Position numbers and translations under genes: made by a program. Of a DNA stretch of 64,000 bases, positions 2,233-60,297 are shown piece by piece. Below the pieces are notes generated by a model, which saw only the letters and a program-made list of their open reading frames with translations, searched no databases and was not told where the DNA came from. The stretch lies in assembly GCF_001677475.2 (NCBI RefSeq), contig NZ_CP015229.1. The stretch is one strand, 5' to 3'. This DNA comes from Escherichia coli. Lineage in GTDB: Bacteria > Pseudomonadota > Gammaproteobacteria > Enterobacterales > Enterobacteriaceae. Numbering within the stretch: the stretch's first letter is position 1; every line of letters begins with the position of its first letter.

Positions 2233-3708
2233 ATGGCTAACTACTTCAATACACTGAATCTGCGCCAGCAGCTGGCACAGCTGGGCAAATGTCGCTTTAT
2301 GGGCCGCGATGAATTCGCCGATGGCGCGAGCTACCTTCAGGGTAAAAAAGTAGTCATCGTCGGCTGTGGCGCACAGGGTCTGAACCAGGGCCTGAACATG
2401 CGTGATTCTGGTCTCGATATCTCCTACGCTCTGCGTAAAGAAGCGATTGCCGAGAAGCGCGCGTCCTGGCGTAAAGCGACCGAAAATGGTTTTAAAGTGG
2501 GTACTTACGAAGAACTGATCCCGCAGGCGGATCTGGTGGTTAACCTGACGCCGGATAAGCAGCATTCCGACGTTGTGCGTTCCGTACAGCCGTTGATGAA
2601 AGATGGCGCGGCGCTGGGTTACTCGCACGGTTTCAACATCGTGGAAGTAGGCGAGCAGATCCGCAAAGACATCACCGTAGTAATGGTTGCGCCGAAATGC
2701 CCGGGCACCGAAGTGCGTGAAGAGTACAAACGTGGATTTGGCGTACCGACGCTTATCGCCGTTCACCCGGAAAACGATCCAAAAGGCGAAGGCATGGCGA
2801 TCGCGAAAGCCTGGGCGGCAGCGACCGGCGGTCACCGTGCAGGCGTGCTGGAATCGTCCTTCGTTGCGGAAGTGAAATCTGACCTGATGGGCGAGCAAAC
2901 CATCCTGTGCGGTATGTTGCAGGCTGGCTCTCTGCTGTGCTTCGACAAACTGGTGGAAGAAGGCACCGATCCGGCATACGCAGAAAAACTGATTCAGTTC
3001 GGCTGGGAAACCATCACCGAAGCACTGAAACAGGGCGGCATCACCCTGATGATGGACCGTCTCTCTAACCCGGCGAAACTGCGTGCTTATGCGCTGTCAG
3101 AACAGCTGAAAGAGATCATGGCACCGCTGTTCCAGAAACATATGGACGACATCATCTCCGGCGAATTCTCCTCCGGCATGATGGCGGACTGGGCCAACGA
3201 TGATAAGAAACTGCTGACCTGGCGTGAAGAAACCGGCAAAACCGCGTTTGAAACCGCGCCGCAGTATGAAGGCAAAATCGGCGAGCAGGAGTACTTCGAT
3301 AAAGGCGTACTGATGATCGCGATGGTGAAAGCGGGCGTTGAGCTGGCGTTCGAAACCATGGTCGATTCCGGCATCATTGAAGAGTCTGCATATTATGAAT
3401 CACTGCACGAGCTGCCACTGATTGCCAACACCATCGCCCGTAAGCGTCTGTACGAAATGAACGTGGTTATCTCTGATACCGCCGAGTACGGTAACTATCT
3501 GTTCTCTTACGCTTGTGTGCCGTTGCTGAAACCGTTTATGGCAGAGCTGCAACCGGGCGATCTGGGTAAAGCTATTCCGGAAGGTGCGGTAGATAACGCG
3601 CAACTGCGTGATGTGAACGAAGCGATTCGCTGCCATGCGATTGAGCAGGTAGGTAAGAAACTGCGCGGCTATATGACGGATATGAAACGTATTGCTGTTG
3701 CGGGTTAA
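2233..3708 (+). CDS. ilvC: Ketol-acid reductoisomerase
   Basis: Translation from ATG 2233 [28 protein letters not shown]..., 491 aa; upstream part of the track ORF is spurious. Confidence 0.95.
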
Positions 3709-6923: not shown

Positions 6924-8408
6924 TTAATGCACTTCCAGCGGCCAGTGGACATAGCTCTGCCACTGGCTTTCCTGAGCAATAATCTCTTTACCTAGCGGAT
7001 GTTGGGTTAGCCAACCTTGCGGAAGCGTCAAGGTCAACAGTTCATGGTTAGCCTGTAATGTCATCTCTGGCACGAGATCGTCACGGCGACGGCTGGCAAA
7101 AATGATGGCCAGGCGTAGTAAACGGCAGAGTTGTTCTGCGACGCGCGGCGGTACGGCATTTTGCTGATGCAGCGATGAGAGATCGACCGGATTAGTCTGG
7201 TTGAGCAGTAGCGTCGCCAGCAATTTTTTCTGTGCGGGGGTAAAACCGGGAAGATCCAGATTACGTACCAGATAAGCAGCGTGTTGCGGCGCTTGTTTGA
7301 AGTCAACGCTCAGGCCGATTTCATGAAGCTGGCAGGCGCTGATGAGCAAATCGCGGCTTATTGCTTCAAGATGCCATTCTTTTTTCACCTGATCGAAGAA
7401 GTTAGCCGCAACTTTGGCTACGCGCTGTGCCTGATCAATATCGATCATAAAGCGGCGCTGAATATTACGCAGCGTACGGCTGCGAATATCCTGCTCGACA
7501 GTCAGATGCAACATGCCGTAGACCAGGCCTTCACGCAGCGCACCGCCCGCCAGGGTCATACACTGAATATTCAGTTCGGTAAAAATGGCTATCAGGATTG
7601 CCAGACCACTCGGGAACACTAACGCACGTTCCAGCGTCAGCCCGTCAATCTCCAGTTCCTCCAGCCGACCGCAATGAATGGCTCGCTGTTTCAGTTGCTG
7701 CAACTTTTCCAGGGTAATGCGTTCATCCATCCCCTGTGCCATCATGATTTCCTGTAACGCCTGCACGGTGCCGGAAGCGCCAACGCACACTTTCCAGCCG
7801 TGATACCGTAATTCATCGGCAACCGGACGTAACACTTCGCGTGCCGCTTTTTCTGCAGCATCAAAATTTTCCTGCCCCAGATTACGATCGGCAAAATAGC
7901 GTTCCAGCCAGGTCACGCAGCCCATCGACAGGCTGAACAACGAGGTGGTTTGTGCACCCGTGCCGGTTACCAGTTCAGTACTGGCACCGCCTATATCCAC
8001 CACCAGGCGCTGATCGGCACCGCCTGTTGTGTGGGCCACCCCCTGATAAATCAGGCGGGCTTCTTCTTCACCGCTGATGACTTTTACCGGGCAGCCAAGG
8101 ATTTCCTGTGCTTTGGCGATAAAATCACCCGCATTGACGGCTAGTCGTAATGTCGCCGTAGCGACAACGCGAATTTGCGAGGGAGGGATATCTTGCAGAC
8201 GTTCAGCAAACAGGCGCAAACATTGCCAACCGCGCTCCATTGCTTCATTAGACAGGGCATTTTCGCTGTTCAGGCCAGCAGCCAGACGCACTTTGCGTTT
8301 AATTCGCGTCAGCGTCTGGATGCTTCCAGCCACCTCGCGCACAACCAGCATATGAAAACTATTCGAACCGAGATCAATGGCTGCATACAGCGACGAGGTG
8401 GAACCCAT
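6924..8408 (-). CDS. gppA: Guanosine pentaphosphate phosphohydrolase / exopolyphosphatase family
   Basis: Translation [23 protein letters not shown]..., 494 aa from second Met of track ORF. Confidence 0.93.
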
Positions 8409-9808: not shown

Positions 9809-9938
9809 AGTGTGGTAGAATATCAGCTTACTATTGCTTTACGAAAGCGTATCCGGTGAAATAAAGTCAACCTTTAGTTGGTTAATGTTACACCAACAAC
9901 GAAACCAACACGCCAGGCTTATTCCTGTGGAGTTATAT

Positions 9939-10268
9939 ATGAGCGATAAAATTATTCACCTGACTGACGACAGTTTTGACACGGATGTACTCAAAGCGGA
10001 CGGGGCGATCCTCGTCGATTTCTGGGCAGAGTGGTGCGGTCCGTGCAAAATGATCGCCCCGATTCTGGATGAAATCGCTGACGAATATCAGGGCAAACTG
10101 ACCGTTGCAAAACTGAACATCGATCAAAACCCTGGCACTGCGCCGAAATATGGCATCCGTGGTATCCCGACTCTGCTGCTGTTCAAAAACGGTGAAGTGG
10201 CGGCAACCAAAGTGGGTGCACTGTCTAAAGGTCAGTTGAAAGAGTTCCTCGACGCTAACCTGGCGTAA
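9939..10268 (+). CDS. trxA: Thioredoxin 1
   Basis: Translation from ATG 9939 [41 protein letters not shown]..., 109 aa, WCGPC active site. Confidence 0.97.
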
Positions 10269-26552: not shown

Positions 26553-26629
<77 letters not shown>

Positions 26630-26686
26630 TTTAGTCCCGGCGCTTGAGCTGCGGTGGTAGTAATGCCGCGTAACAAGATTTGTAGT

Positions 26687-26763
26687 GGTGGCTATAGCTC
26701 AGTTGGTAGAGCCCTGGATTGTGATTCCAGTTGTCGTGGGTTCGAATCCCATTAGCCACCCCA
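26687..26763 (+). tRNA. hisR: tRNA-His (anticodon GTG)
   Basis: ggtggctatagctcagttggtagagccctggattgtgattccag...ccacccca with the extra 5' G typical of tRNA-His. Confidence 0.95.
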
Positions 26764-26783
26764 TTATTAGAAGTTGTGACAAT

Positions 26784-26870
26784 GCGAAGGTGGCGGAATT
26801 GGTAGACGCGCTAGCTTCAGGTGTTAGTGTCCTTACGGACGTGGGGGTTCAAGTCCCCCCCCTCGCACCA
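26784..26870 (+). tRNA. leuT: tRNA-Leu (anticodon CAG), class II with long variable arm
   Basis: 87-nt sequence gcgaaggtggcggaattggtagacgcgctagcttcaggtgttagtgtccttacggacgtgggggttcaagtcccccccctcgcacca. Confidence 0.95.
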
Positions 26871-26912
26871 CGACTTTAAAGAATTGAACTAAAAATTCAA
26901 AAAGCAGTATTT

Positions 26913-26989
26913 CGGCGAGTAGCGCAGCTTGGTAGCGCAACTGGTTTGGGACCAGTGGGTCGGAGGTTCGAATCCTCTCTCGCCGACCA
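26913..26989 (+). tRNA. proM: tRNA-Pro (anticodon TGG)
   Basis: cggcgagtagcgcagcttggtagcgcaactggtttgggaccagtgggtcggaggttcgaatcctctctcgccgacca. Confidence 0.95.
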
Positions 26990-28537: not shown

Positions 28538-30193
28538 TTAATCAGATTTAATCTGCGCGCGTGGTGGATATTTTTTCAGGATCTCCATATATGCGTGCAT
28601 TTCGGTCTGTAGCGGTACACCCATCGGAATATGGCGCACGCCGATAGAGTCTCTTTCCTGCGGATCGGTGTACAGGTTAAACACCGACGATCCCGCCGTT
28701 TGCATTACTGTGCCGGTGAACCCACCCTGATACCCGCTCTGGGTATAAGCGTAAGGTTGCTGAATCAGGACGTGATACTTGAACTCATCCATACGCACAG
28801 CAGCGAGTTTACCGTTGAGGAAGTAGTGCTCGGCCTTACGGTTAGACTGACCATTTGTTCCCAGGAAGAAAGAAGCCTGGTCCACACCATCGATAAATGT
28901 GGTTTTCGGCACTAAATTCGCCACTTTCGCTCCAGGATGCCCTGCCAGATCCAGCGCGGTAGGGAAGAGATCTGCCAGATCGACAATACCGTCAGATTTA
29001 CGCGGTTGGATCATGCCTTTCCAGTAAACGAAGGTTGGCACACGAACGCCGCCTTCCCATGTAGAACCTTTCGCACCGCGGAACGGGGTGCGACCGTGCG
29101 GCGGAACTTCGGCTTCCGGACCGTTATCAGAGGTGAACACAATCAGCGTGTTATCAAGCTGACCGTTTTTCTCCAGTGCTTTATACAGATTGGCGAAGAT
29201 TTCGTTCATCTCCACCATGCAGTCGCCGTAAGAGGTGCGCGCCGGAGAGCTACCCGCATATTTCGCATTTGGGTAGTTATCGAAGTGACAGCCGCGAGTG
29301 CCGTAGTAGAGGAAGAAAGGCTTATCGCTCTTCGCCATCTTGTCGAGGAACTTAACGCCATATTCCATCCAGCGTTGATCCAGGTCTTCCATATATTTCG
29401 GCGTAATGTCGGCAATGGCCTCCTGTTCACCGCCGCGCACGGCATGAACGTCATCTTTGCTGAATGGCAGTTTTTGGATGTATTCAGAACGATCCGGGCT
29501 CAGGGCGACTTCCGGGTTGACATGAACATCACGCCATTCGGTATACATATCGGACACCGAGTTAAAGCCGCGGAAATCATCAAAGCCAACGTTCTGCGGC
29601 TGCGACTCTTTGTTTTCCCCCATATGCCATTTCCCGATGGCCTGGGTGACGTAACCCTGATCGTGCAGCAGTTGCGGCAGCGTGGTTAACCCTTGCAGCC
29701 CGCCCGGTTGCCCGTACATTGGCGGCATCAGAATGCCGTGGTGGATGGAGTATTGTCCGGTGAGAATGGTGGCGCGGGTTGGGGAAGAGCTTGGTTGAGA
29801 ATACGCCGAAGTTAAAATCAGCCCCTGGCTGGCAACGGCGTCGATATCTGGTGTAGGGTTACCCACTGCCACGCCGCCGCCGTTAAAGCCGACGTCCATC
29901 CAGCCCACATCATCCAGCAGGAAGATAACCACATTGGGCTTCTTACCGGTTTTTTTCTCAAGTTCTGCCAGCTTGTGCTGGGTTTCTTTATCCTGCGCCG
30001 GATGCTGCATTACTGGCATCATGTTGTCGGCAATAGTGGTCGCCGGTTTAACCAGATACTGGTTTGGGTGATCGTATCCGGAAAAGCCTTTGCGTGCGGT
30101 GGCAGTTGACGGGGTATCTGCTGCGCTGGCCATGAGAGGAAGAGCGGCGGCGACAGCAACAACAAGAAGTTTGGGTGAAAACGAAAATTCCAT
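28538..30193 (-). CDS. aslA: Arylsulfatase-family periplasmic sulfatase
   Basis: 551-aa translation with signal peptide [24 protein letters not shown] and sulfatase core. Confidence 0.93.
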
Positions 30194-30607
30194 GCAAAAT
30201 GCTCCGGTTTCATGTCATCAAAATGATGACGTAATTAAGCATTGATAATTGAGATCCCTCTCCCTGACAGGATGATTACATAAATAATAGTGACAAAAAT
30301 AAATTATTTATTTATCCAGAAAATGCATTGGAAAATCAGGAGAGCGTTTTCAATCCTACCTCTGGCGCAGTTGATATGTAAGGCAGGTTTATTATATCGC
30401 GTTGATTATTGATGCTGTTTTTAGTTTTAACGGCAATTAATATATGTGTTATTAATTGAATAAATTTTATCATTCATAATAAGTATGTGTAGAATCAAGC
30501 TCAGGGTAAATATTCACTCAGGAAGTTATTACTCAGGAAGCAAAGAGGATTACAGAATTATCTCATAACAAGTGTTAAGGGATGTTATTTCCCGATTCTC
30601 TGTGGCA

Positions 30608-30824
30608 TAATAAACGAGTAGATGCTCATTCCATCTCTTATGTTCGCCTTAGTGCCTCATAAACTCCGGAATGACGCAGAGCCGTTTACGGTGCTTATCG
30701 TCCACTGACAGATGTCGCTTATGCCTCATCAGACACCATGGACACAACGTTGAGTGAAGCACCCACTTGTTGTCATACAGACCTGTTTTAACGCCTGCTC
30801 CGTAATAAGAGCAGGCGTTTTTTT
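30608..30824 (+). ncRNA. glmZ: GlmZ small regulatory RNA (GlmY/GlmZ cascade controlling glmS)
   Basis: Recognised sequence gtagatgctcattccatctcttatgttcgccttagtgcctcataaactccggaatgacgcagagcc... ending in terminator gcctgctccgtaataagagcaggcgttttttt; located between aslA and hemY; ends approximate. Confidence 0.85.
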
Positions 30825-30871
30825 ATGTATCAGAAAGGTCCCGGAGGTGCTTGCCTCCGGGTGAGAAAGAA

Positions 30872-32068
30872 CTACTGTGGCGGGTTGTTCTGCAACGTTA
30901 ACATCAAACCGTCGCGGCGCATCGCTGCAGCTTCTTCTGGTTTGTGCAGTCTGTCCAGCGCGTCGGCAAGCCATGCGTAATCGTAGGCGTCCGGACGTTG
31001 TTTCAGCGCTGCGCGGAAGGCGAGCGATGCTTCCTGCCATTCTCCGTGCTTCATCAGCGACTGACCCAGTGTGCTCCACAACAGCGGGCGATCGCCGACG
31101 TTTTTGATCTGTTGGCGCAGCACTTTTTCCAGCTGTTCCGGGTTATTGGTTTTCAGACGCGGGATCGGCAGCAGTAGGCGATCGTCATACTGGCGTTTCA
31201 GGCCGTCGATGATAATTTGCTGGGCAGTATCATGATCGTCACATTCAATAAGATGTTCCGCCATTGCCACCTGCAACGCTACCTGATGACGCGTTTTCCG
31301 GCTTTGGTTTTTCCACCAGTTACGCAAACCTTCGCTACCGTTATCGGCACGAGCCTGATCCATCAGGCCAATCCATGCCTGTTGTTCCAGCATTGCACGA
31401 TGTTCTTCATCACCAACATGGGCTTTCGCCATTGATGGGATGATATCCAGCAGCGAACTCCATGCCCCTGTGCGGATATACGCCTGTTCCGCCAGACGTA
31501 ATACTTCCGGATGGCGTGGCGTAACTTCCAGCAGCTTATCCACGCCGTGGCGTGCAGCGTGGTTTTCATTACGGGCCAGTTGCAGACGTACACGGGTGAT
31601 TTCTACCGGAATGGTGTCATTACCGGCCAGCTCCGCTGCGCGTTCCAGATGTTGGTTGGCGCGTGCTTCATCACCACGTTGTTGCGCGGCTTCGGCAGCC
31701 AGTAGATAGTTCACCACCGGTTGTTCAGCGTGATCGGCATTTTTCGCCATCAGCTTTTCAACTTGCTGATAATCGCCTTCCGCCAGTTTCAGCAGCGCCT
31801 GTTCGGTCTGCTTACGGGCACGGCGACGCTTACGTCCGACAAACCACCCACGGGTGTGCGCGCCAGTGCGGAAGATCCGCCGCAGTAGCCACTCAATGGC
31901 AAACAGCACTACCATCGCCAGAATCAAAATAATCGCCAGGCCCGTGACGCTGGTTTCGATATTGTAGTTGTCGGTCTGGATCAGCACATAACCCTGATGA
32001 CCGGCAATCATCGGGCCAACCACGATCCCCGCAATCAGCAACACAAAGAGCAATAACACTTTTAGCAT
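30872..32068 (-). CDS. hemY: Heme biosynthesis-associated TPR membrane protein HemY
   Basis: 398-aa translation MLKVLLLFVLLIAGIVVGPMIAGHQGYVLIQTDNYNIETS... Confidence 0.93.
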   Translation of the reverse strand: MLKVLLLFVLLIAGIVVGPMIAGHQGYVLIQTDNYNIETSVTGLAIILILAMVVLFAIEWLLRRIFRTGAHTRGWFVGRKRRRARKQTEQALLKLAEGDYQQVEKLMAKNADHAEQPVVNYLLAAEAAQQRGDEARANQHLERAAELAGNDTIPVEITRVRLQLARNENHAARHGVDKLLEVTPRHPEVLRLAEQAYIRTGAWSSLLDIIPSMAKAHVGDEEHRAMLEQQAWIGLMDQARADNGSEGLRNWWKNQSRKTRHQVALQVAMAEHLIECDDHDTAQQIIIDGLKRQYDDRLLLPIPRLKTNNPEQLEKVLRQQIKNVGDRPLLWSTLGQSLMKHGEWQEASLAFRAALKQRPDAYDYAWLADALDRLHKPEEAAAMRRDGLMLTLQNNPPQ

Positions 32069-32070
32069 GG

Positions 32071-33288
32071 TTATTCTCCTTGCGGCGCGGCTGCCGGAGT
32101 ATCAGCTTGCGGTGCAGGTGCAGGTGCAGGTGCAGGTGCAGGTGCAGGTGCAGGTGCAGGTTTAGCTTCCGTTGTCCCCGCTGCCGGTTGTGCCAACAGG
32201 TTACGCACGCGAGTCTGCATCAGTTTTTCCAGCATCGCCTGGCTTTGCAGGGTTTCCGGAAGATCCATCGAGATATTTTGCTGGCTTAACTGGTCCACCT
32301 CGTCGAGGAATGCTTTGGTGGTGGCATCATCAGTATCGTAGTAAGCACGTACCCAGGTGGAGACGTTCTCCAGCGCCTGGCGATAAGTCTCTTCCTGATG
32401 ACGCGGTACAGCTTGTGCAGCGACCAGCAGGCGAGAGCGAATATTTTCGCGCAGATAGATATCCTGATTTGGCGCTAACAGCGGTACGGCGGTGTCATCA
32501 CGACGGCGAATCGTAATGAAGTTGTCCATAAAGTTCTGCCAGCTTTTTTGCAGATTGATACGCCATTCGCTGATGGAACTGGAAAGCTCTTCACCGTCGG
32601 AATCCATCGGCGAACCATCGCTGTCATTATCGGCCAGACGCAGGTTATCTACCTGATTTGAAAGCTGATTAAGCTTAAGGATGATGCCGTCATAATCCAC
32701 CTGCGATACTGCAGAAAGGCTGGCGATATCATCGGTAATTGCCCGACGAACGGTAATCAGACTCGGGTCATTCATATCCGCCAGGCTGGCATCTGCACTT
32801 TTCAGCAACGCTGCAGCGGTCGTGACGTCTTGATCGCTCCACAGCTTCCGTCCTGCGAGTTTCACCAGAAAATCGGCCTGAGCCAGCAGCCAGGTTTTAG
32901 CATCGCTGCCGGAAATGGTGGCGACCTTTTGTTGGACTTCATCCAACTGTTTTGCCAGCGTTTCTTGCTGACGATTCGCCTGCTTAAGCTGTGCAGCTTG
33001 TTGCTTAATAATGCCTTCCAGCTCGGCTTTTTGGCTCTCCTGGGCTTTTTGCAATGCCGTCAGTTGGTTAGCCAGGGCATCGCTGGTGGCGGTCTGATTG
33101 ACGGCCTGTTGTTTACCCCAGCCATACAAACCGACGCCCGCCGCCAGAGCAATCGCGATAGCCACCGCGCTGAGAATCAATGCGGTATTGTTCTTACTCT
33201 TTTTTTCTGTTGCGACAGGTTGTGACGTGGTGTCCACGGCCTCCCTGGTCTCTTCAACCACGGCGGAGGTTTTTTCTTGTTCCGTCAT
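32071..33288 (-). CDS. hemX: HemX (uroporphyrinogen-III C-methyltransferase homolog / membrane protein)
   Basis: 405-aa translation; C-terminal (PA)n tract encoded by the hexanucleotide repeat at 32111..32160. Confidence 0.9.
32111..32160. repeat. Tandem hexanucleotide repeat (GGTGCA)x8 inside hemX, encoding a Pro-Ala repeat
   Basis: Read directly: ggtgcaggtgcaggtgcaggtgcaggtgcaggtgcaggtgcaggtgcagg. Confidence 0.95.
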
Positions 33289-33309
33289 TATGGCTTCCTG
33301 TTATGAGAG

Positions 33310-34050
33310 TTATTGTAATGCCCGTAAAAGCGCATCGTTGTCAGCGTTATCGGCGACCTTAATGTCTTGCCAGCCCAGTTCCCGGGCGAGTTTCGCCAAA
33401 CGCTCACTGACGACCAATAGTCGACAGTGTAGTAACCAGTGCTCACGATACCATTGTGGGATCAGCGACCAGAGTTGCTGCAACATTTCACCGCTGGTAA
33501 CAACGACCGTCGTCACCTCGCGGGATTGCCAGCGCATCGCTTCTTCTGCACCATCGTAATGGATTGCGCATCGTTGATAACATTCACAAAAAGTGACCTC
33601 AGCACCGCGCGCCGTCAGGGTATCCCCAATTAGCTCACGACCGCCATTGCCACGTAATATCAGCGCACGTTTGCCCGCAATATTTTGTAATTCAGGTAAT
33701 TGTAGCAAGACTTCGCTGATTTCCCGATCCTGCGGGTAGAGAATCTTCTGTCCGCTTACGGTATGTAGCGCCAGTGCGGTGGTGCGTCCAATGGCGAAAT
33801 AATCAGGTAGTCGGGGCCATTTACGATCTTGCTGATGCAGCTGTGATTGGGCAAAAGCAACCGCGTGTTGCGAGAGGGCAAACAACAGATCGCTCTCCCC
33901 CAGCGCTGCCAGTTGATCAGCAAGTTGCGGTAATTGTCGACCCGGAGAAAACTCAATCAGCGGAAAATGCCAGGCCACCTGCCCCAGTGTGCGCAGACGG
34001 CTCACTAACTCTTCTCCAGCGGGAGACGGGCGGGTGACCAGGATACTCAT
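33310..34050 (-). CDS. hemD: Uroporphyrinogen-III synthase
   Basis: 246-aa translation [34 protein letters not shown]... Confidence 0.93.
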
Positions 34051-34988
34051 GCCGGGGCGTCTCCGTTATAGACTTCAGCAAGGATCTCGCGCGCGCCGTT
34101 ATTCAGTAGCTCTTCTGCCAGCGAAATCCCCATTTGTTCGGCATCTTGCGGCGCACCGCGGCGTTCACCGCGAATAATCTGCGAACCGTCCGGCGCGCCG
34201 ACCAGCGCACGCAGCCAGATTTCGCCATCAATAAGCTCGGCGTAGCTACCAATTGGCACCTGACATCCGCCTTCGAGACGGGTATTCATGGCGCGTTCTG
34301 CGGTAACGCGCAGTGCAGTTTCGTGGTGATTCAGCGCGGCAAGCAGCTCGCGAGTGCGTGTATCATCAAGGCGGCATTCAATGCCCACCGCACCTTGTCC
34401 TACCGCCGGAAGAGAAATCTCGGGTGGCAACGCGGCGCGAATACGTGACTCCAGACCTAAACGTTTTAGTCCGGCTACGGCAAGAATGATGGCATCGTAT
34501 TCGCCGTTATCCAGTTTGCTCAGGCGAGTGCCGACGTTGCCGCGCAGGGAGCGGATAATCAGATCCGGGCGGCGTTCAGCCAGTTGGCACTGGCGACGTA
34601 AACTGGACGTCCCGACGATACTGCCTGCCGGTAACGCATCCAGACTGTCATAGTTATTGGACACAAAGGCATCGCGAGGATCTTCACGCTCGCAAATAGT
34701 GACCAGCCCCAGACCTTGCGGGAATTCAACCGGCACATCTTTCATTGAATGTACGGCGATATCGGCGCGATTTTCGAGGAGCGCGATTTCCAGCTCTTTA
34801 ACAAATAAGCCTTTTCCGCCTACTTTCGCCAGCGGCGTATCAAGAATCACATCGCCGCGCGTCACCATCGGTACCAATTCAACGACCAGGCCCGGATGGC
34901 TCGCCATCAACTTGTCTTTGACATAGTGTGCCTGCCAGAGTGCAAGTGGGCTTTGGCGTGTGGCAATTCTTAAAACATTGTCTAACAT
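34047..34988 (-). CDS. hemC: Porphobilinogen deaminase (hydroxymethylbilane synthase)
   Basis: Translation [27 protein letters not shown]..., 313 aa from internal Met of track ORF; 4-nt overlap with hemD. Confidence 0.93.
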
Positions 34989-35203
34989 GCTTGTTACCGT
35001 CATTATCATCCGTGGTCCATCCTAACATCCTTGCCAGAGCGATGTCAGTGTTGTGGTGAAACGTAGACGCCTGCGCAAACCGTAAAATGAGGTCTGGCAG
35101 TGGATCCTGACAGGCGTTTCACGCCGTCGTAATAAGGAATTTACAGAGAATAAACGGTGCTACACTTGTATGTAGCGCATCTTTCTTTACGGTCAATCAG
35201 CAA

Positions 35204-35225
35204 GGTGTTAAATTGATCACGTTTT
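35204..35225. promoter_or_regulatory. Candidate CRP-like binding site in the hemC/cyaA divergent control region
   Basis: ggtgttaaattgatcacgtttt shows imperfect TGTGA-N6-TCACA symmetry; cyaA is known to be under cAMP-CRP control. Confidence 0.35.
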
Positions 35226-35374
35226 AGACCATTTTTTCGTCGTGAAACTAAAAAAACCAGGCGCGAAAAGTGGTAACGGTTACCTTTGACATACGAAATA
35301 TCCCGAATGCCGCGTGTTACCGTTGATGTTGGCGGAATCACAGTCATGACGGGTAGCAAATCAGGCGATACGTC

Positions 35375-37921
35375 TTGTACCTCTATATTGAGACTCTGAA
35401 ACAGAGACTGGATGCCATAAATCAATTGCGTGTGGATCGCGCGCTTGCTGCTATGGGGCCTGCATTCCAACAGGTCTACAGTCTACTGCCGACATTGTTG
35501 CACTATCACCATCCGCTAATGCCGGGTTACCTTGATGGTAACGTTCCCAAAGGCATTTGCCTTTACACGCCTGATGAAACTCAACGCCACTACCTGAACG
35601 AGCTTGAACTGTATCGTGGAATGTCAGTACAGGACCCACCGAAAGGTGAGCTTCCAATTACTGGTGTATACACCATGGGCAGCACCTCGTCCGTAGGGCA
35701 AAGTTGTTCCTCTGACCTGGATATTTGGGTCTGTCATCAATCCTGGCTCGATAGCGAAGAGCGCCAGTTACTACAACGTAAATGCAGCTTGCTGGAAAGC
35801 TGGGCCGCCTCGCTGGGTGTGGAAGTCAGCTTCTTCCTGATTGATGAAAACCGCTTCCGTCATAATGAAAGCGGCAGCCTGGGGGGTGAAGATTGTGGCT
35901 CCACCCAGCATATACTGCTGCTTGACGAATTTTATCGTACCGCCGTGCGTCTCGCCGGTAAGCGTATTCTGTGGAATATGGTGCCGTGCGACGAAGAAGA
36001 GCATTACGACGACTATGTGATGACGCTTTACGCGCAGGGCGTGCTGACGCCAAATGAATGGCTGGATCTCGGTGGCTTAAGCTCGCTTTCTGCTGAAGAG
36101 TACTTTGGTGCCAGCCTTTGGCAGCTCTACAAAAGTATCGATTCTCCATACAAAGCGGTGCTGAAAACACTGCTGCTGGAAGCCTATTCCTGGGAATACC
36201 CGAACCCACGTTTGCTGGCGAAAGATATCAAACAGCGTTTGCACGACGGCGAGATTGTATCGTTTGGTCTCGATCCGTACTGCATGATGCTGGAGCGTGT
36301 TACTGAATACCTGACGGCGATTGAAGATTTTACCCGTCTGGATTTAGTACGTCGCTGCTTCTATTTAAAAGTGTGCGAAAAACTCAGCCGTGAACGCGCT
36401 TGCGTAGGCTGGCGTCGCGCAGTGTTGAGCCAGTTAGTGAGCGAGTGGGGTTGGGACGAAGCTCGTCTGACAATGCTCGATAACCGCGCTAACTGGAAGA
36501 TTGATCAGGTGCGTGAGGCGCACAACGAGTTGCTCGACGCGATGATGCAGAGCTACCGTAATCTGATCCGCTTTGCGCGTCGCAATAACCTTAGCGTCTC
36601 CGCCAGCCCGCAGGATATTGGCGTACTGACGCGTAAACTGTATGCCGCGTTTGAAGCGTTACCGGGTAAAGTGACGCTGGTAAACCCGCAGATTTCGCCC
36701 GATCTCTCGGAACCGAACCTGACCTTTATTTATGTGCCGCCGGGCCGGGCTAACCGTTCCGGTTGGTATCTGTATAACCGCGCGCCAAACATTGAGTCGA
36801 TCATCAGCCATCAGCCGCTGGAATATAACCGTTACCTGAATAAACTGGTGGCGTGGGCATGGTTTAACGGCCTGCTGACCTCGCGTACCCGTTTGTATAT
36901 TAAAGGTAACGGCATTGTCGATTTGCCTAAGTTGCAGGAGATGGTCGCCGATGTGTCACACCATTTCCCGCTGCGCCTGCCTGCACCGACGCCAAAAGCG
37001 CTCTACAGCCCGTGTGAAATTCGCCATCTGGCGATTATCGTTAACCTGGAATATGACCCGACAGCTGCGTTCCGCAATCAGGTGGTGCATTTTGATTTCC
37101 GTAAGCTGGATGTCTTCAGCTTTGGCGAGAATCAAAATTGCCTGGTAGGTAGCGTTGACCTGCTGTACCGCAACTCGTGGAACGAAGTGCGTACGCTGCA
37201 CTTTAACGGCGAGCAATCGATGATCGAAGCCCTGAAAACCATTCTCGGCAAAATGCATCAGGATGCCGCACCGCCAGATAGCGTGGAAGTCTTCTGTTAT
37301 AGCCAGCATCTGCGCGGGTTAATCCGTACTCGCGTGCAGCAACTGGTTTCTGAGTGTATTGAATTGCGTCTTTCCAGCACCCGCCAGGAAACCGGGCGTT
37401 TCAAGGCGCTGCGCGTTTCTGGTCAAACCTGGGGCTTGTTCTTCGAACGCCTGAATGTATCGGTACAGAAACTGGAAAACGCCATCGAGTTTTATGGCGC
37501 TATTTCGCATAACAAACTACACGGCCTGTCAGTGCAGGTTGAAACCAATCACGTCAAATTACCGGCGGTGGTGGACGGCTTTGCCAGCGAAGGGATCATC
37601 CAGTTCTTCTTCGAAGAAACGCATGACGAGAATGGCTTTAATATTTACATTCTCGACGAAAGCAACCGGGTTGAGGTGTATCACCACTGCGAAGGCAGCA
37701 AAGAGGAGCTGGTGCGTGACGTCAGTCGCTTCTACTCGTCATCGCACGACCGTTTTACCTACGGCTCAAGCTTCATCAACTTCAACCTGCCGCAGTTCTA
37801 TCAGATTGTGAAGGTTGATGGTCGTGAACAGGTGATTCCGTTCCGCACCAAATCGATTGGCAACATGCCGCCTGCCAATCAGGATCACGACACGCCGCTA
37901 TTACAGCAGTATTTTTCGTGA
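35375..37921 (+). CDS. cyaA: Class I adenylate cyclase
   Basis: 848-aa translation [42 protein letters not shown]...; TTG start codon at 35375. Confidence 0.95.
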
Positions 37922-54271: not shown

Positions 54272-55294
54272 ATGTTTCAGCAGCAAAAAGACTGGGAAAC
54301 AAGAGAAAACGCGTTTGCTGCTTTTACCATGGGACCGCTGACTGATTTCTGGCGTCAGCGTGATGAAGCAGAGTTTACTGGTGTGGATGACATTCCGGTG
54401 CGCTTTGTCCGTTTTCGCGCACAGCACCATGACCGGGTGGTAGTCATCTGCCCGGGGCGTATTGAGAGCTACGTAAAATATGCGGAACTGGCCTACGACC
54501 TGTTCCATTTGGGGTTTGATGTCTTAATCATCGACCATCGCGGGCAGGGACGTTCCGGTCGCCTGTTAGCCGATCCGCATCTCGGGCATGTTAATCGCTT
54601 TAATGATTATGTTGATGATCTGGCGGCATTCTGGCAACAGGAGGTTCAGCCCGGTCCGTGGCGTAAACGCTATATACTGGCGCACTCGATGGGCGGTGCG
54701 ATCACCACATTATTTCTGCAACGCCATCCTGGGGTATGCGACGCCATTGCGCTAACTGCGCCAATGTTTGGGATCGTGATTCGTATGCCGTCATTTATGG
54801 CACGGCAGATCCTCAACTGGGCCGAAGCGCATCCACGTTTCCGCGATGGCTATGCAATAGGCACCGGGCGCTGGCGCGCGTTGCCGTTTGCTATCAACGT
54901 ACTGACCCACAGCAGACAGCGATATCGACGTAACTTACGCTTCTATGCTGATGACCCAACGATTCGCGTCGGTGGGCCGACCTACCATTGGGTACGCGAA
55001 AGTATTCTGGCTGGCGAACAGGTGTTAGCCGGTGCGGGTGATGACGCCACGCCAACGCTTCTCTTACAAGCTGAAGAGGAACGCGTGGTGGATAACCGCA
55101 TGCACGACCGTTTTTGTGAACTCCGCACCGCCGCGGGCCATCCTGTCGAAGGTGGACGGCCGTTGGTAATTAAAGGTGCGTACCATGAGATCCTTTTTGA
55201 AAAGGACGCAATGCGCTCAGTCGCGCTCCACGCCATCGTTGATTTTTTCAACAGGCATAACTCACCCAGCGGAAACCGCTCTACAGAGGTTTAA
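54272..55294 (+). CDS. pldB: Lysophospholipase L2
   Basis: 340-aa alpha/beta hydrolase with GHSMGG nucleophile elbow. Confidence 0.93.
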   Translation: MFQQQKDWETRENAFAAFTMGPLTDFWRQRDEAEFTGVDDIPVRFVRFRAQHHDRVVVICPGRIESYVKYAELAYDLFHLGFDVLIIDHRGQGRSGRLLADPHLGHVNRFNDYVDDLAAFWQQEVQPGPWRKRYILAHSMGGAITTLFLQRHPGVCDAIALTAPMFGIVIRMPSFMARQILNWAEAHPRFRDGYAIGTGRWRALPFAINVLTHSRQRYRRNLRFYADDPTIRVGGPTYHWVRESILAGEQVLAGAGDDATPTLLLQAEEERVVDNRMHDRFCELRTAAGHPVEGGRPLVIKGAYHEILFEKDAMRSVALHAIVDFFNRHNSPSGNRSTEV

Positions 55295-55301
55295 ATTTCT
55301 T

Positions 55302-56102
55302 ATGTACCAGGTTGTTGCGTCTGATTTAGATGGCACGTTACTTTCTCCCGACCATACGTTATCCCCTTACGCCAAAGAAACTCTGAAGCTGCTCACCGCG
55401 CGCGGCATCAACTTTGTGTTTGCGACCGGTCGTCACCACGTTGATGTGGGGCAAATTCGCGATAATCTGGAGATTAAGTCTTACATGATTACCTCCAATG
55501 GTGCGCGCGTTCACGATCTGGATGGTAATCTGATTTTTGCTCATAACCTGGATCGCGACATTGCCAGCGATCTGTTTGGCGTAGTCAACGACAATCCGGA
55601 CATCATTACTAACGTTTATCGCGACGACGAATGGTTTATGAATCGCCATCGCCCGGAAGAGATGCGCTTTTTTAAAGAAGCGGTGTTCAAATATGCGCTG
55701 TATGAGCCTGGATTACTGGAGCCGGAAGGCGTCAGCAAAGTGTTTTTCACCTGCGATTCCCATGAACAACTGCTGCCGCTGGAGCAGGCGATTAACGCTC
55801 GCTGGGGCGATCGCGTCAACGTCAGTTTCTCTACCTTAACCTGTCTGGAAGTGATGGCGGGCGGCGTGTCGAAAGGCCATGCGCTGGAAGCAGTGGCGAA
55901 GAAACTGGGCTACAGCCTGAAGGATTGTATTGCGTTTGGTGACGGGATGAACGACGCCGAAATGCTGTCGATGGCGGGGAAAGGCTGCATTATGGGCAGT
56001 GCGCACCAGCGTCTGAAAGATCTGCATCCGGAGCTGGAAGTGATTGGTACTAATGCCGACGACGCGGTGCCGCATTATCTGCGTAAACTCTATTTATCGT
56101 AA
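55302..56102 (+). CDS. yigL: HAD-family (Cof-type) sugar/pyridoxal phosphate phosphatase
   Basis: Translation from ATG 55302 MYQVVASDLDGTLLSPDHTLSPYAKETLKLLTARGINFVFATGRHH..., 266 aa. Confidence 0.9.
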   Translation: MYQVVASDLDGTLLSPDHTLSPYAKETLKLLTARGINFVFATGRHHVDVGQIRDNLEIKSYMITSNGARVHDLDGNLIFAHNLDRDIASDLFGVVNDNPDIITNVYRDDEWFMNRHRPEEMRFFKEAVFKYALYEPGLLEPEGVSKVFFTCDSHEQLLPLEQAINARWGDRVNVSFSTLTCLEVMAGGVSKGHALEAVAKKLGYSLKDCIAFGDGMNDAEMLSMAGKGCIMGSAHQRLKDLHPELEVIGTNADDAVPHYLRKLYLS

Positions 56103-56177
56103 TCGTTCTTTATTTGGTCAGTTGTCAACCTGATACTTCGCTACAATGGATACTCGTTAATCAAAGAGTTTTCCATT

Positions 56178-57077
56178 GTGGCGCTACTTATCATCACCAC
56201 GATTCTGTGGGCCTTCTCCTTTAGCTTTTATGGCGAGTACCTTGCGGGGCACGTCGATAGCTATTTTGCGGTGCTGGCGCGCGTTGGCCTGGCGGCACTC
56301 GTTTTTCTGCCGTTTCTGCGTACCCGTGGCAATAGCCTGAAAACAGTCGGCCTGTATATGCTGGTGGGCGCGATGCAGCTCGGCGTGATGTATATGCTGA
56401 GTTTCCGCGCCTATCTCTACCTGACGGTCTCTGAACTGCTGCTGTTTACCGTGCTGACGCCGCTCTACATCACGCTGATTTATGACATTATGAGCAGACG
56501 TCGTCTGCGCTGGGGCTATGCCTTTAGCGCCTTGCTGGCGGTGATTGGTGCCGGGATTATTCGCTATGATCAGGTCACCGACCATTTCTGGACTGGCTTG
56601 TTGCTGGTGCAACTCTCCAATATCACTTTTGCCATCGGCATGGTGGGTTACAAACGCCTGATGGAAACTCGCCCGATGCCGCAGCATAACGCCTTTGCGT
56701 GGTTCTATCTTGGCGCGTTCCTGGTGGCGGTAATTGCATGGTTCTTGCTGGGCAATACGCAGAAAATGCCGGAAACAACGCTGCAATGGGGCATTCTGGT
56801 ATTTCTTGGCGTGGTGGCTTCAGGGATTGGCTACTTTATGTGGAACTACGGCGCGACGCAGGTGGACGCCGGAACGCTCGGCATTATGAACAATATGCAC
56901 GTTCCGGCAGGGCTGCTGGTTAACCTGGCTATCTGGCACCAACAGCCGCACTGGCCAACGTTTATTACAGGCGCGCTGGTGATCCTGGCCTCACTGTGGG
57001 TGCATCGTAAGTGGGTCGCTCCGCGCTCTTCACAAACGGCAGATGATCGCAGGCGTGATTGCGCGCTGAGCGAATAA
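56178..57077 (+). CDS. yigM: DMT/EamA-family transporter (biotin transporter YigM/BioP)
   Basis: 299-aa 10-TM translation; 3' end overlaps the convergent metR by 113 nt. Confidence 0.85.
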
Positions 57078-57918
57078 ACGCTTCCGTAACTGGCTGACGC
57101 TGCTCTCCATCGCGCACGGCGGCGTAAAGTCGGCTCCACAAGCCTTCGCCCAGGGTTTTGGTCACCACCAGAACCTGGCGTTCAAAACTCTCTACTACCC
57201 AATGCGGTAGCGCGGCAATACCCATCCGCGCGGCAACCATCTGAATCAACAATAAGGTGTTATCGACGCTTTTCAGTGACGGGCTGACGCCTGCCGGCTG
57301 AAGAAAATGCCGCCAGACATCCAGTCGACTACGCTGTACCGGATAAATCAACAGCGTCTCGCTGGCTAGATCTTCCGGTGTAATTCGCGTTTTCGCCGCC
57401 AGTGGATGGTCAGGTGCTAACACCAGACGCACTTCATAATCGAACATCGGCGAATAATGCAGGCCACTGCGCGGCAGAATATCGGAGGTCATCACCAGAT
57501 CCAGCTCGCCCTGCTGCAACGCAGGCTGCGGGTCAAACGTTACGCCTGATTTAAAATCCATCTCGACCTGCGGCCAGTTCTTATGGAAATTTTCTAACGC
57601 GGGTGTCAGCCACTGAATACAGCTATGGCACTCAATGGCAATACGCAGGCGCGTTTGCTGCGGTTCATTGCAGGCTTGCAGTGCCTGACTGATTTGCGGC
57701 AGTACCTGGTTTGCCAGTTGCAATAGGATTTCTCCCTGCGGCGTAAAACGTAGCGGCTGGCTTTTACGCACAAATAGCCGGAAGCCAAGGCGTTGTTCCA
57801 GATCGCTAAACTGGTGAGACAGGGCGGATTGCGTCTGATGCAACGTCGCCGCAGCGGCTGCGAGCGAGCCGCAATTCCGCAACGCTTGTAGCGTTTTCAG
57901 GTGTTTTACTTCGATCAT
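56965..57918 (-). CDS. metR: LysR-family transcriptional activator of metE/metH
   Basis: 317-aa translation [63 protein letters not shown]...; divergent from metE. Confidence 0.95.
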
Positions 57919-58035
57919 GAAAGTCCTTCACTTCGGCATGAATAATTTGCGCTTGAGGAATATACAGTAACCGCCAATTATGGATGTGTAAACATCTGGA
58001 CGGCTAAATACTAAAAATTCCATAAGGGGCATATA
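57919..58035. promoter_or_regulatory. metR/metE divergent control region (MetR and MetJ sites expected)
   Basis: 117-nt spacer; contains aaacatctggacggctaaat with tandem met-box-like octamers (consensus AGACGTCT). Confidence 0.5.
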
Positions 58036-60297
58036 ATGACAATTCTTAATCACACCCTCGGTTTCCCTCGCGTTGGCCTGCGTCGCGAGCTGAAAAAAGC
58101 GCAAGAAAGTTATTGGGCGGGGAACTCCACGCGTGAAGAATTACTGGCAGTAGGGCGTGAATTGCGTGCTCGTCACTGGGATCAACAAAAGCAGGCGGGT
58201 ATCGACCTGCTGCCGGTGGGCGATTTTGCCTGGTACGATCATGTTCTGACCACCAGCCTGCTGCTGGGTAACGTTCCGGCGCGTCATCAGAATAAAGACG
58301 GTTCGGTGGATATCGACACCCTGTTCCGTATTGGTCGCGGTCGTGCGCCAACTGGTGAACCTGCGGCGGCGGCAGAAATGACCAAATGGTTTAACACCAA
58401 CTATCACTACATGGTGCCGGAATTCGTTAAAGGCCAACAGTTCAAACTGACCTGGACGCAGCTGCTGGATGAAGTAGACGAGGCGCTGGCGTTGGGTCAC
58501 AAGGTGAAACCTGTGCTTCTGGGGCCGGTTACCTGGCTGTGGCTGGGTAAGGTGAAAGGTGAACAGTTTGACCGCCTGAGCCTGCTGAACGACATTCTGC
58601 CGGTTTATCAGCAGGTTCTGGCAGAACTGGCCAAACGTGGTATTGAGTGGGTACAGATTGACGAACCGGCGCTGGTGCTGGAACTGCCGCAGGCGTGGCT
58701 GGATGCGTATAAACCTGCTTACGATGCACTCCAGGGGCAGGTGAAACTGCTGCTGACCACCTATTTTGAAGGTGTAACGCCAAACCTTGACACGATTACT
58801 GCGCTGCCTGTTCAGGGGCTGCATGTGGACCTTGTACATGGTAAAGATGACGTTGTTGAACTGCACAAGCGTTTGCCTTCTGACTGGTTGCTGTCTGCGG
58901 GTCTGATCAATGGTCGTAACGTCTGGCGCGCCGATCTCACCGAGAAATATGCGCAAATTAAGGACATTGTCGGCAAACGTGATTTGTGGGTGGCATCTTC
59001 CTGCTCACTGCTGCATAGCCCCATCGACCTGAGCGTGGAAACGCGTCTTGATGTAGAAGTGAAAAGCTGGTTTGCCTTCGCCCTACAAAAATGCCATGAA
59101 CTGGCACTGCTGCGCGATGCGCTGAACAGTGGTGACACGGCAGCTCTGGCAGAGTGGAGCGCCCCAATTCAGGCGCGTCGTCACTCAACCCGCGTACATA
59201 ATCCGGCGGTAGAAAAGCGTCTGGCAGCGATCACCGCCCAGGACAGCCAGCGTGAGAATGTCTATGAAGTGCGTGCCGAAGCTCAGCGTGCGCGTTTTAA
59301 ACTGCCAGCGTGGCCGACCACCACGATTGGTTCTTTCCCGCAAACCACGGAAATTCGTACCCTGCGTCTGGATTTCAAAAAGGGTAATCTCGACGCCAAC
59401 AACTACCGCACGGGCATTGCGGAACATATCAAGCAGGCCATTGTTGAGCAGGAACGTTTAGGACTGGATGTGCTGGTACATGGCGAGGCTGAGCGTAATG
59501 ACATGGTGGAATACTTTGGCGAGCACCTCGACGGGTTTGTCTTTACGCAAAACGGTTGGGTACAGAGCTACGGTTCCCGCTGCGTGAAGCCACCGATTGT
59601 TATTGGTGACGTTAGCCGCCCGGCACCGATTACCGTGGAGTGGGCGAAGTATGCGCAATCGCTGACCGACAAACCGGTGAAAGGGATGCTGACCGGCCCG
59701 GTGACGATTCTCTGCTGGTCGTTCCCGCGTGAAGATGTCAGCCGTGAAACCATCGCCAAACAAATTGCGCTGGCGCTGCGTGATGAAGTGGCGGACCTGG
59801 AAGCCGCAGGAATTGGCATCATCCAGATTGATGAACCGGCGCTGCGCGAAGGTTTACCGCTGCGTCGCAGCGACTGGGATGCCTATCTCCAGTGGGGCGT
59901 GGAGGCTTTCCGTATCAACGCCGCCGTGGCGAAAGATGACACACAAATCCACACTCACATGTGTTACTGCGAGTTCAACGACATCATGGATTCGATTGCT
60001 GCACTGGACGCAGACGTCATCACCATCGAAACCTCGCGTTCTGACATGGAGTTGCTGGAGTCGTTCGAAGAGTTTGATTATCCGAATGAAATCGGTCCAG
60101 GCGTCTATGACATTCACTCGCCAAACGTACCGAGCGTGGAATGGATTGAAGCCTTGCTGAAGAAAGCGGCAAAACGCATTCCGGCAGAGCGCCTGTGGGT
60201 CAACCCGGACTGTGGCCTGAAAACGCGCGGCTGGCCAGAAACCCGCGCGGCACTGGCGAACATGGTGCAGGCGGCGCAGAATTTGCGTCGGGGATGA
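58036..60297 (+). CDS. metE: Cobalamin-independent methionine synthase
   Basis: 753-aa translation [48 protein letters not shown]... Confidence 0.96.

Follow-up and report, generated by a model that had tools for sequence, protein, structure and literature searches.

The window, as we call the whole 64,000-nt stretch of Escherichia coli DNA that was analysed, carries a pair of convergent genes whose coding sequences share their 3' ends. The first, yigM (bioP; 56178..57077, + strand), is an ORF of 299 aa with a GTG start that encodes a biotin transporter of the EamA/DMT family, a role that has been described previously (PMC5120140; PMC4049904). The second, metR (56965..57918, - strand), is an ORF of 317 aa that encodes the LysR-type regulator of metE/metH. 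Pfam annotation detected EamA in YigM (E=4e-22), the domain ending at aa 275, and HTH_1 and LysR_substrate in MetR, with the domain end at aa 288. Based on these domains, the RefSeq names, published function and the PDB entries for MetR, both overlapping ORFs are real, functional genes.

The stretch common to the two ORFs spans 113 nt (56965..57077, both strands) and codes for YigM aa 263-299 on one strand and MetR aa 281-317 on the other. The two frames are arranged such that yigM codon position 1 lies opposite metR position 1, position 2 opposite 3 and position 3 opposite 2. Each gene terminates against a Phe-Ile pair of its partner: the metR stop TAA (56965..56967, - strand) is antisense to YigM F262-I263 (TTT ATT), and the last codon and stop of yigM, GAA TAA (57072..57077, + strand), are antisense to MetR F281-I282 (also TTT ATT). 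The same arrangement is annotated in the RefSeq genomes of K-12 W3110 (bioP 1579-2478 and metR 2366-3319 in the extracted locus, L001) and MG1655 (bioP 4011076-4011975, metR 4011863-4012816). Accordingly, the 113-nt convergent overlap that the original prediction had read from the letters is confirmed by the ORF coordinates and by identical K-12 annotation, and the ORF lengths of 299 and 317 aa, which it had matched to the K-12 proteins, are indeed those in RefSeq. It had also named an earlier end of one ORF as the finding that would abolish the overlap; no earlier in-frame stops are present, and the same stops are used across genera.

The locus is nearly universal in the species, at least 80% of the yigM-metR segment being found in 5,422 of 5,426 complete E. 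coli genomes. Compared with each of 5,425 complete E. coli genomes, the yigM-metR segment of the window (56100-58000) shows an identity of only 96.1-97.5%, and the hemC-cyaA segment (30000-36000) reaches 98.9%. This looks like either a somewhat diverged Escherichia lineage or a locally more diverged locus. One strain, E. coli Z135-6 (L003, NZ_CP159632.1, 1579-3398), has both bioP and metR annotated as pseudogenes lacking their C-termini, and a 636-nt 'hypothetical protein' CDS sits between the two, which means that both genes had their overlapping ends replaced jointly.

Phylogenetic distribution of the overlap

One genome per species was scanned with a degenerate DNA pattern located in the metR-only part, outside the overlap in order to keep the estimate of conservation unbiased. 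The scan returned 120 Enterobacterales loci, 109 of which contained both gene ends and could be entered into a census based on motif anchors and the first in-frame stops. Conservation in other Enterobacteriaceae, the check that the original prediction had proposed, was found: the overlap is present in 89 of the 109 Enterobacterales species, from six families, with lengths between 86 and 116 nt. More specifically, the length is exactly 113 nt in 62 species, 116 nt in nine, 98 nt in eight, 95 nt in seven, 86 nt in two and 107 nt in one. Every one of these lengths equals 2 modulo 3, hence the phase of the two frames is fixed.

Taxa bearing the overlap comprise Enterobacteriaceae as well as Yersinia, Rahnella, Rouxiella, Hafnia, Dickeya, Brenneria, Lonsdalea, Proteus, Morganella and Moellerella. 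Look-ups of named MetR proteins gave 113 nt for both Salmonella and Yersinia and 98 nt for Dickeya; the overlap in Proteus is 86 nt and that of several Rahnella and Hafnia loci 95 nt. The 116-, 98- and 95-nt forms in other genera result from shifts of the metR stop by +3, -15 or -18 nt, respectively.

The remaining 20 of the 109 loci, from Serratia, Pantoea and Erwinia, show no overlap. The two genes are separated by 4-36 nt in Serratia (2.8 kb in one case), and in Erwinia and Pantoea by either 5 nt or 0.5-1.1 kb. In Pantoea sp. IMH (L022, 9045-9521), a 158-aa ORF (MTNNDVLRSVRYMLNLSDAQ...) lies between metR and yigM and is co-directional with metR, which explains why the Pantoea lineage lacks the overlap. 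More distant homologues of YigM, 292-294 aa long and about 50% identical, are free-standing and do not adjoin metR. The accepted family tree of the order makes the overlap an ancestral feature with secondary losses. The yigM/metR overlap is therefore a genuine and ancient one, between a tail-to-tail pair of unrelated genes.

Several records encountered in the scan deserve mention on their own account. A record under the alphaproteobacterial name 'Martelella alba' carries an Enterobacterales-type metR-yigM pair (in the group of L100, L072 and L096). The titles of two more seem inconsistent with their sequences: 'Enterobacter cancerogenus M004' has a Pantoea-type spacer and 'Serratia marcescens 1001295B' has Dickeya-like tails. 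Rouxiella silvae (L107) and Serratia sp. M24T3 (L116) encode a MetR of 317-318 aa without an adjoining yigM. In the Rouxiella silvae locus (7030-8404), a glutamine-rich 105-aa ORF (7030-7347) is found just downstream of metR, followed by a 251-aa ORF on the opposite strand.

Codon-position diversity within the overlap

A gap-free alignment of 81 distinct overlap-bearing loci was used to calculate nucleotide diversity by codon position. The calculation was repeated with one sequence per genus (n=32) with the same result; the measure itself ignores phylogeny. With one sequence per genus, the yigM-only part read in the yigM frame has a diversity of.18/.09/.50 at positions 1/2/3, and the metR-only part read in the metR frame has.13/.06/.44. 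Within the overlap, the half proximal to the metR stop (half A, 56965-57017) displays.19/.12/.48 in the yigM frame, and the half proximal to the yigM stop (half B, 57025-57077) displays.18/.11/.45 in the metR frame. The switch from yigM-type to metR-type diversity takes place near window position 57020.

The other frame in each half evolves like non-coding sequence. In half A, MetR position-2 diversity is.48 versus.06 elsewhere in metR (p=5e-10), and in half B, YigM position-2 diversity is.45 versus.09 elsewhere in yigM (p=1e-8), so that in both halves the variability at the second positions of this frame exceeds that in the rest of the gene by a factor of about 5-8. We also looked for suppression of synonymous variation and found none either at metR position 3 in half B (.447 versus.441 in the metR-only part, p=.82) or at yigM position 3 in half A (.483 versus.499 in the yigM-only part, p=.66). 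A 20-nt stretch that was invariant in six sequences had been considered as a mark of dual constraint; it was discarded, as across 81 taxa its MetR third positions proved as variable as those in the remainder of the gene.

These patterns show that in half A purifying selection acts on the end of the last membrane helix of YigM (aa 263-280) and leaves the MetR tail (about aa 301-317) free of constraint, and that in half B it acts on the C-terminal segment of MetR (aa 281-298), with essentially no constraint on the YigM tail (aa 283-299). With selection on one frame per half and normal synonymous variation, the 113 nt are not doubly constrained. The statement of the original prediction that the overlap constrains both C-termini thus survives in part: the tails are dictated by the conserved codons of the partner, but the diversity data show no double constraint, and Serratia and the Erwiniaceae manage with shorter YigM tails and no overlap.

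A small exception is found at the very end of yigM. MetR F281 is encoded by TTT in 86 of 86 overlap taxa, and codon 282 ends in T in all 86 (ATT in 83). The two invariant third positions correspond to the second bases of the final yigM codon GAA (Glu299) and of the TAA stop. In the 20 non-overlap taxa, a control that represents only two or three clades and so few independent events, TTC occurs at codon 281, and codon 282 is ATC in 11, GTG in three, ATT in two, ACC in two and ATG in one. Within the metR-only part, the invariant third positions all belong to Trp or Met codons and no degenerate site is invariant. A skew is also seen at MetR F295 (window 57034, opposite YigM Gln286), which is TTT in 79 of 86 overlap taxa versus 10 of 20 non-overlap taxa. 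Positions 57072-57077 therefore look like a small island in which both frames appear constrained, the sole exception to the general lack of synonymous suppression. This suggests selection on YigM Glu299 and the stop, and perhaps on Gln286, within a tail that would otherwise be unconstrained.

Structural context of the C-terminal tails

The AF2 model of YigM (mean pLDDT 90.8) contains ten helices, and its confidence declines along the C-terminus from a pLDDT of 89 (aa 271-280) to 66 (aa 281-290) and 57 (aa 291-299). A PDB sequence search with YigM returned no match. For MetR, PDB entry 5FO5 covers aa 1-92 of the E. coli protein, and the regulatory domain of Neisseria MetR (PDB 4AB5) aligns to aa 87-296; since this alignment extends up to aa 296, the MetR segment encoded in half B belongs to the folded domain. 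The YigM proteins of the overlap-free Serratia, Pantoea and Erwinia stop 6-12 residues past the WVH(R/K)RW motif, and the MetR tail following ...RP is unrelated in sequence, with protein lengths of 308-316 aa. Overall, MetR ranges from 308 to 318 aa and its tail is variable in sequence. The 4AB5 alignment, the drop in YigM pLDDT and the tails of the overlap-free taxa together indicate that on the DNA the conserved core of YigM borders directly on that of MetR, the tails being appendages.

The length of the overlap can be related to this geometry. The MetR codons were resampled in 5,000 trials that allowed synonymous changes only and so left the protein as it is. In 61% of these trials, the yigM frame ran on for the same 17 extra codons as in the window, and in none did it run further. 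Stops in the in-phase antisense frame are sparse: opposite metR there are seven over 280 codons, and opposite yigM there are 19 over 262. The resampling result indicates that the length of the overlap is the chance expectation once the MetR protein is fixed and the cores abut.

Transcription through the overlap

Because both coding sequences are transcribed through the overlap, the two mRNAs share a complementary stretch of at least 113 nt. Scans for intrinsic terminators and promoters over 56600-57500 and 54800-58300 gave nothing above the shuffled expectation, and folding of the overlap RNA revealed no unusual stability on either strand (z = +0.96 for the + strand and -0.21 for the - strand). 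An Rfam scan of the whole window at the gathering score produced six matches, all outside 56965-57077. These are the GlmZ sRNA, the trxA 5' UTR thermometer and four tRNA genes, located within 30618-30824, 9869-9968 and 26553-26986.

Published termination data cover the same genes in MG1655. Supplementary file 2 of Adams et al. 2021 (eLife, PMC7815308) lists a Rho termination region at 4011704 on the + strand, internal to yigM, with a Rho score of 5.07 and a significance of 1.3e-12. The underlying reads, which are low counts taken over 800-nt windows, number 98 upstream and 21 downstream in untreated cells and 300 and 326 after bicyclomycin treatment (PMC7815308). Through the MG1655 coordinates, this region corresponds to about window position 56806 (+ strand), some 270 nt before the yigM stop, a placement that is coarse given the 800-nt windows. 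No curated Term-seq 3' end falls within MG1655 4011600-4012199, and metR is absent from the tables (PMC7815308), so that the Rho region is the only published signal we found at the locus. The data fit a situation in which Rho terminates transcripts of the yigM strand near the 3' end of the gene or beyond it, which would limit antisense read-through into metR. The position of the Rho region within yigM may reflect weak translation of yigM or merely the coarse resolution of the method.

Discussion

We consider it very likely that yigM/metR is a genuine, ancient overlap of unrelated genes that arose and has been kept passively. The conserved cores abut, the end of the tenth YigM membrane helix (~V280) meeting the C-terminal segment of MetR (~P302), and each frame continues into the antisense strand of its partner up to the first in-phase stop. 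Both stops are set by conserved residues of the partner, namely MetR Phe281-Ile282 and YigM Phe262-Ile263. The outcome is a pair of appended tails, YigM 281-299 and MetR ~303-317, whose sequence is set by the partner gene and not by their own function. Each mRNA must reach into the partner gene by 113 nt or more, and Rho, in the apparent lack of an intrinsic terminator, would probably end yigM-sense transcription once ribosomes leave at the stop codon. Regulatory coupling is not required to explain the arrangement. As a counterpoint, its retention across six families could reflect selection for the arrangement itself.

The original prediction had gone further and proposed mutual transcriptional interference or an antisense effect, neither of which is favoured by what can be read from the sequence. 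A regulatory device of this kind, in which polymerase collision or 3'-end pairing would link biotin uptake with expression of the methionine regulator, is in our judgement improbable. Such a coupling is plausible because biotin synthesis uses S-adenosylmethionine at several steps, and it would draw on the necessary complementarity of the two mRNAs, on the missing intrinsic terminator between the genes and on the wide retention of the arrangement in 89 of 109 species. However, the overlap RNA shows neither a hairpin or pause-like structure nor a surplus of folding energy, the synonymous sites lack the extra conservation that an RNA element would need, the overlap was lost in Serratia and Erwiniaceae, Rho appears to stop yigM-sense transcription and so to limit antisense read-through, and neither gene is known for high expression. 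Collision-driven bidirectional termination is known for other convergent pairs of E. coli, but the yigM/metR pair is not mentioned in that work (bioRxiv 10.1101/2022.10.23.513370). We regard as a still slimmer prospect that selection actively keeps the overlap in most Enterobacterales because convergent transcription or pairing of the 3' ends of the RNAs would couple MetR expression, and with it methionine/SAM status, to biotin uptake, with the invariant GAA-TAA as a trace of this selection.

It is very improbable that the 113 nt represent true dual coding, with both C-terminal tails functional and the entire overlap under purifying selection in two frames. The constancy of the 299- and 317-aa lengths across most Enterobacteriaceae and Yersinia might be taken this way, as might the 20-nt stretch shared without change by E. 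coli, Salmonella, Yersinia and Dickeya and the invariant terminal GAA-TAA of yigM. Yet the lengths are constant because the stops are encoded by the partner, the second positions of YigM in half B and of MetR in half A vary several-fold more than in the rest of each gene, and the tails are missing or different in overlap-free taxa; dual coding thus seems largely refuted by the diversity analysis. To an artefact of annotation or sequencing, in which one ORF would end earlier and no overlap would exist, we give next to no credence. The survey of Pallejà et al. 2008, in which 124 overlaps were judged misannotated, counts in favour of this explanation (PMC2478687). Against it, the same stops are found in thousands of E. 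coli genomes and in dozens of genera (Salmonella, Yersinia, Dickeya, Proteus and others), a recurrence that a strain-specific frameshift or an annotation artefact does not produce; neither frame has an earlier stop, and the phenotype of the Keio metR deletion is that of yigM loss (PMC5120140).

The passive overlap we favour offers a textbook example of how an overlap conserved across a whole order can exist without double coding constraint. This would be possible because the tail of each protein, probably dispensable, covers the essential end of its partner. It also cautions against inferring regulation from the length of an overlap alone.

The arrangement has a practical consequence for genetics. 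By the design of the Keio collection, the metR allele deletes about the last 30 codons of yigM and, conversely, the yigM allele deletes about the last 30 codons of metR. As the metR allele takes part of the last membrane helix of YigM, its phenotype proves that the overlap is relevant to knockouts but does not bear on the extreme tail. There are hints that the C-terminal end of MetR is not essential. Côté et al. 2016 (mBio, PMC5120140) noted that yigM and metR "overlap substantially" and that the Keio metR deletion phenocopies loss of the yigM biotin transporter, and concluded that yigM is also disrupted. That single-gene knockouts of metR or yigM, such as the Keio alleles, damage the neighbour is thus already recognised (PMC5120140), and as a result a phenotype ascribed to one gene can belong to the other.

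The closest known system is the K-12 pair bioP(yigM)/metR itself (b3827/b3828; PMC5120140). The genes, the 113-nt overlap and the protein tails are the same and there is no structural difference, the window sequence being slightly diverged at 96-97.5% DNA identity. The overlap is already annotated and published; the comparative selection analysis is what we add here, as it is absent from PMC5120140. The pair also resembles the overlapping bidirectional terminators (Ju et al. 2019; Wang et al. 2022 preprint) in being convergent without a canonical intrinsic terminator between the genes. Those terminators, however, are intergenic sites with a hairpin in the overlapped transcript region, whereas in yigM/metR the coding sequences themselves overlap, no hairpin was detected and the data point to Rho on the yigM strand.

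As an overlap, yigM/metR is like the long convergent ones described before (Rogozin et al. 2002; PMC2478687): it is tail-to-tail, longer than 60 bp and formed by two well-characterised genes. It shares with them an origin by 3' extension into the neighbour and is, like them, free of problems of start-codon annotation. The survey of Pallejà et al. retained 54 overlaps as possibly real, mostly conserved only in very close species (PMC2478687). Unlike most of these, yigM/metR spans at least six Enterobacterales families. The pair therefore belongs to the genuine minority of long overlaps, with unusually wide conservation, and its evolution is that of the standard 3'-extension model.
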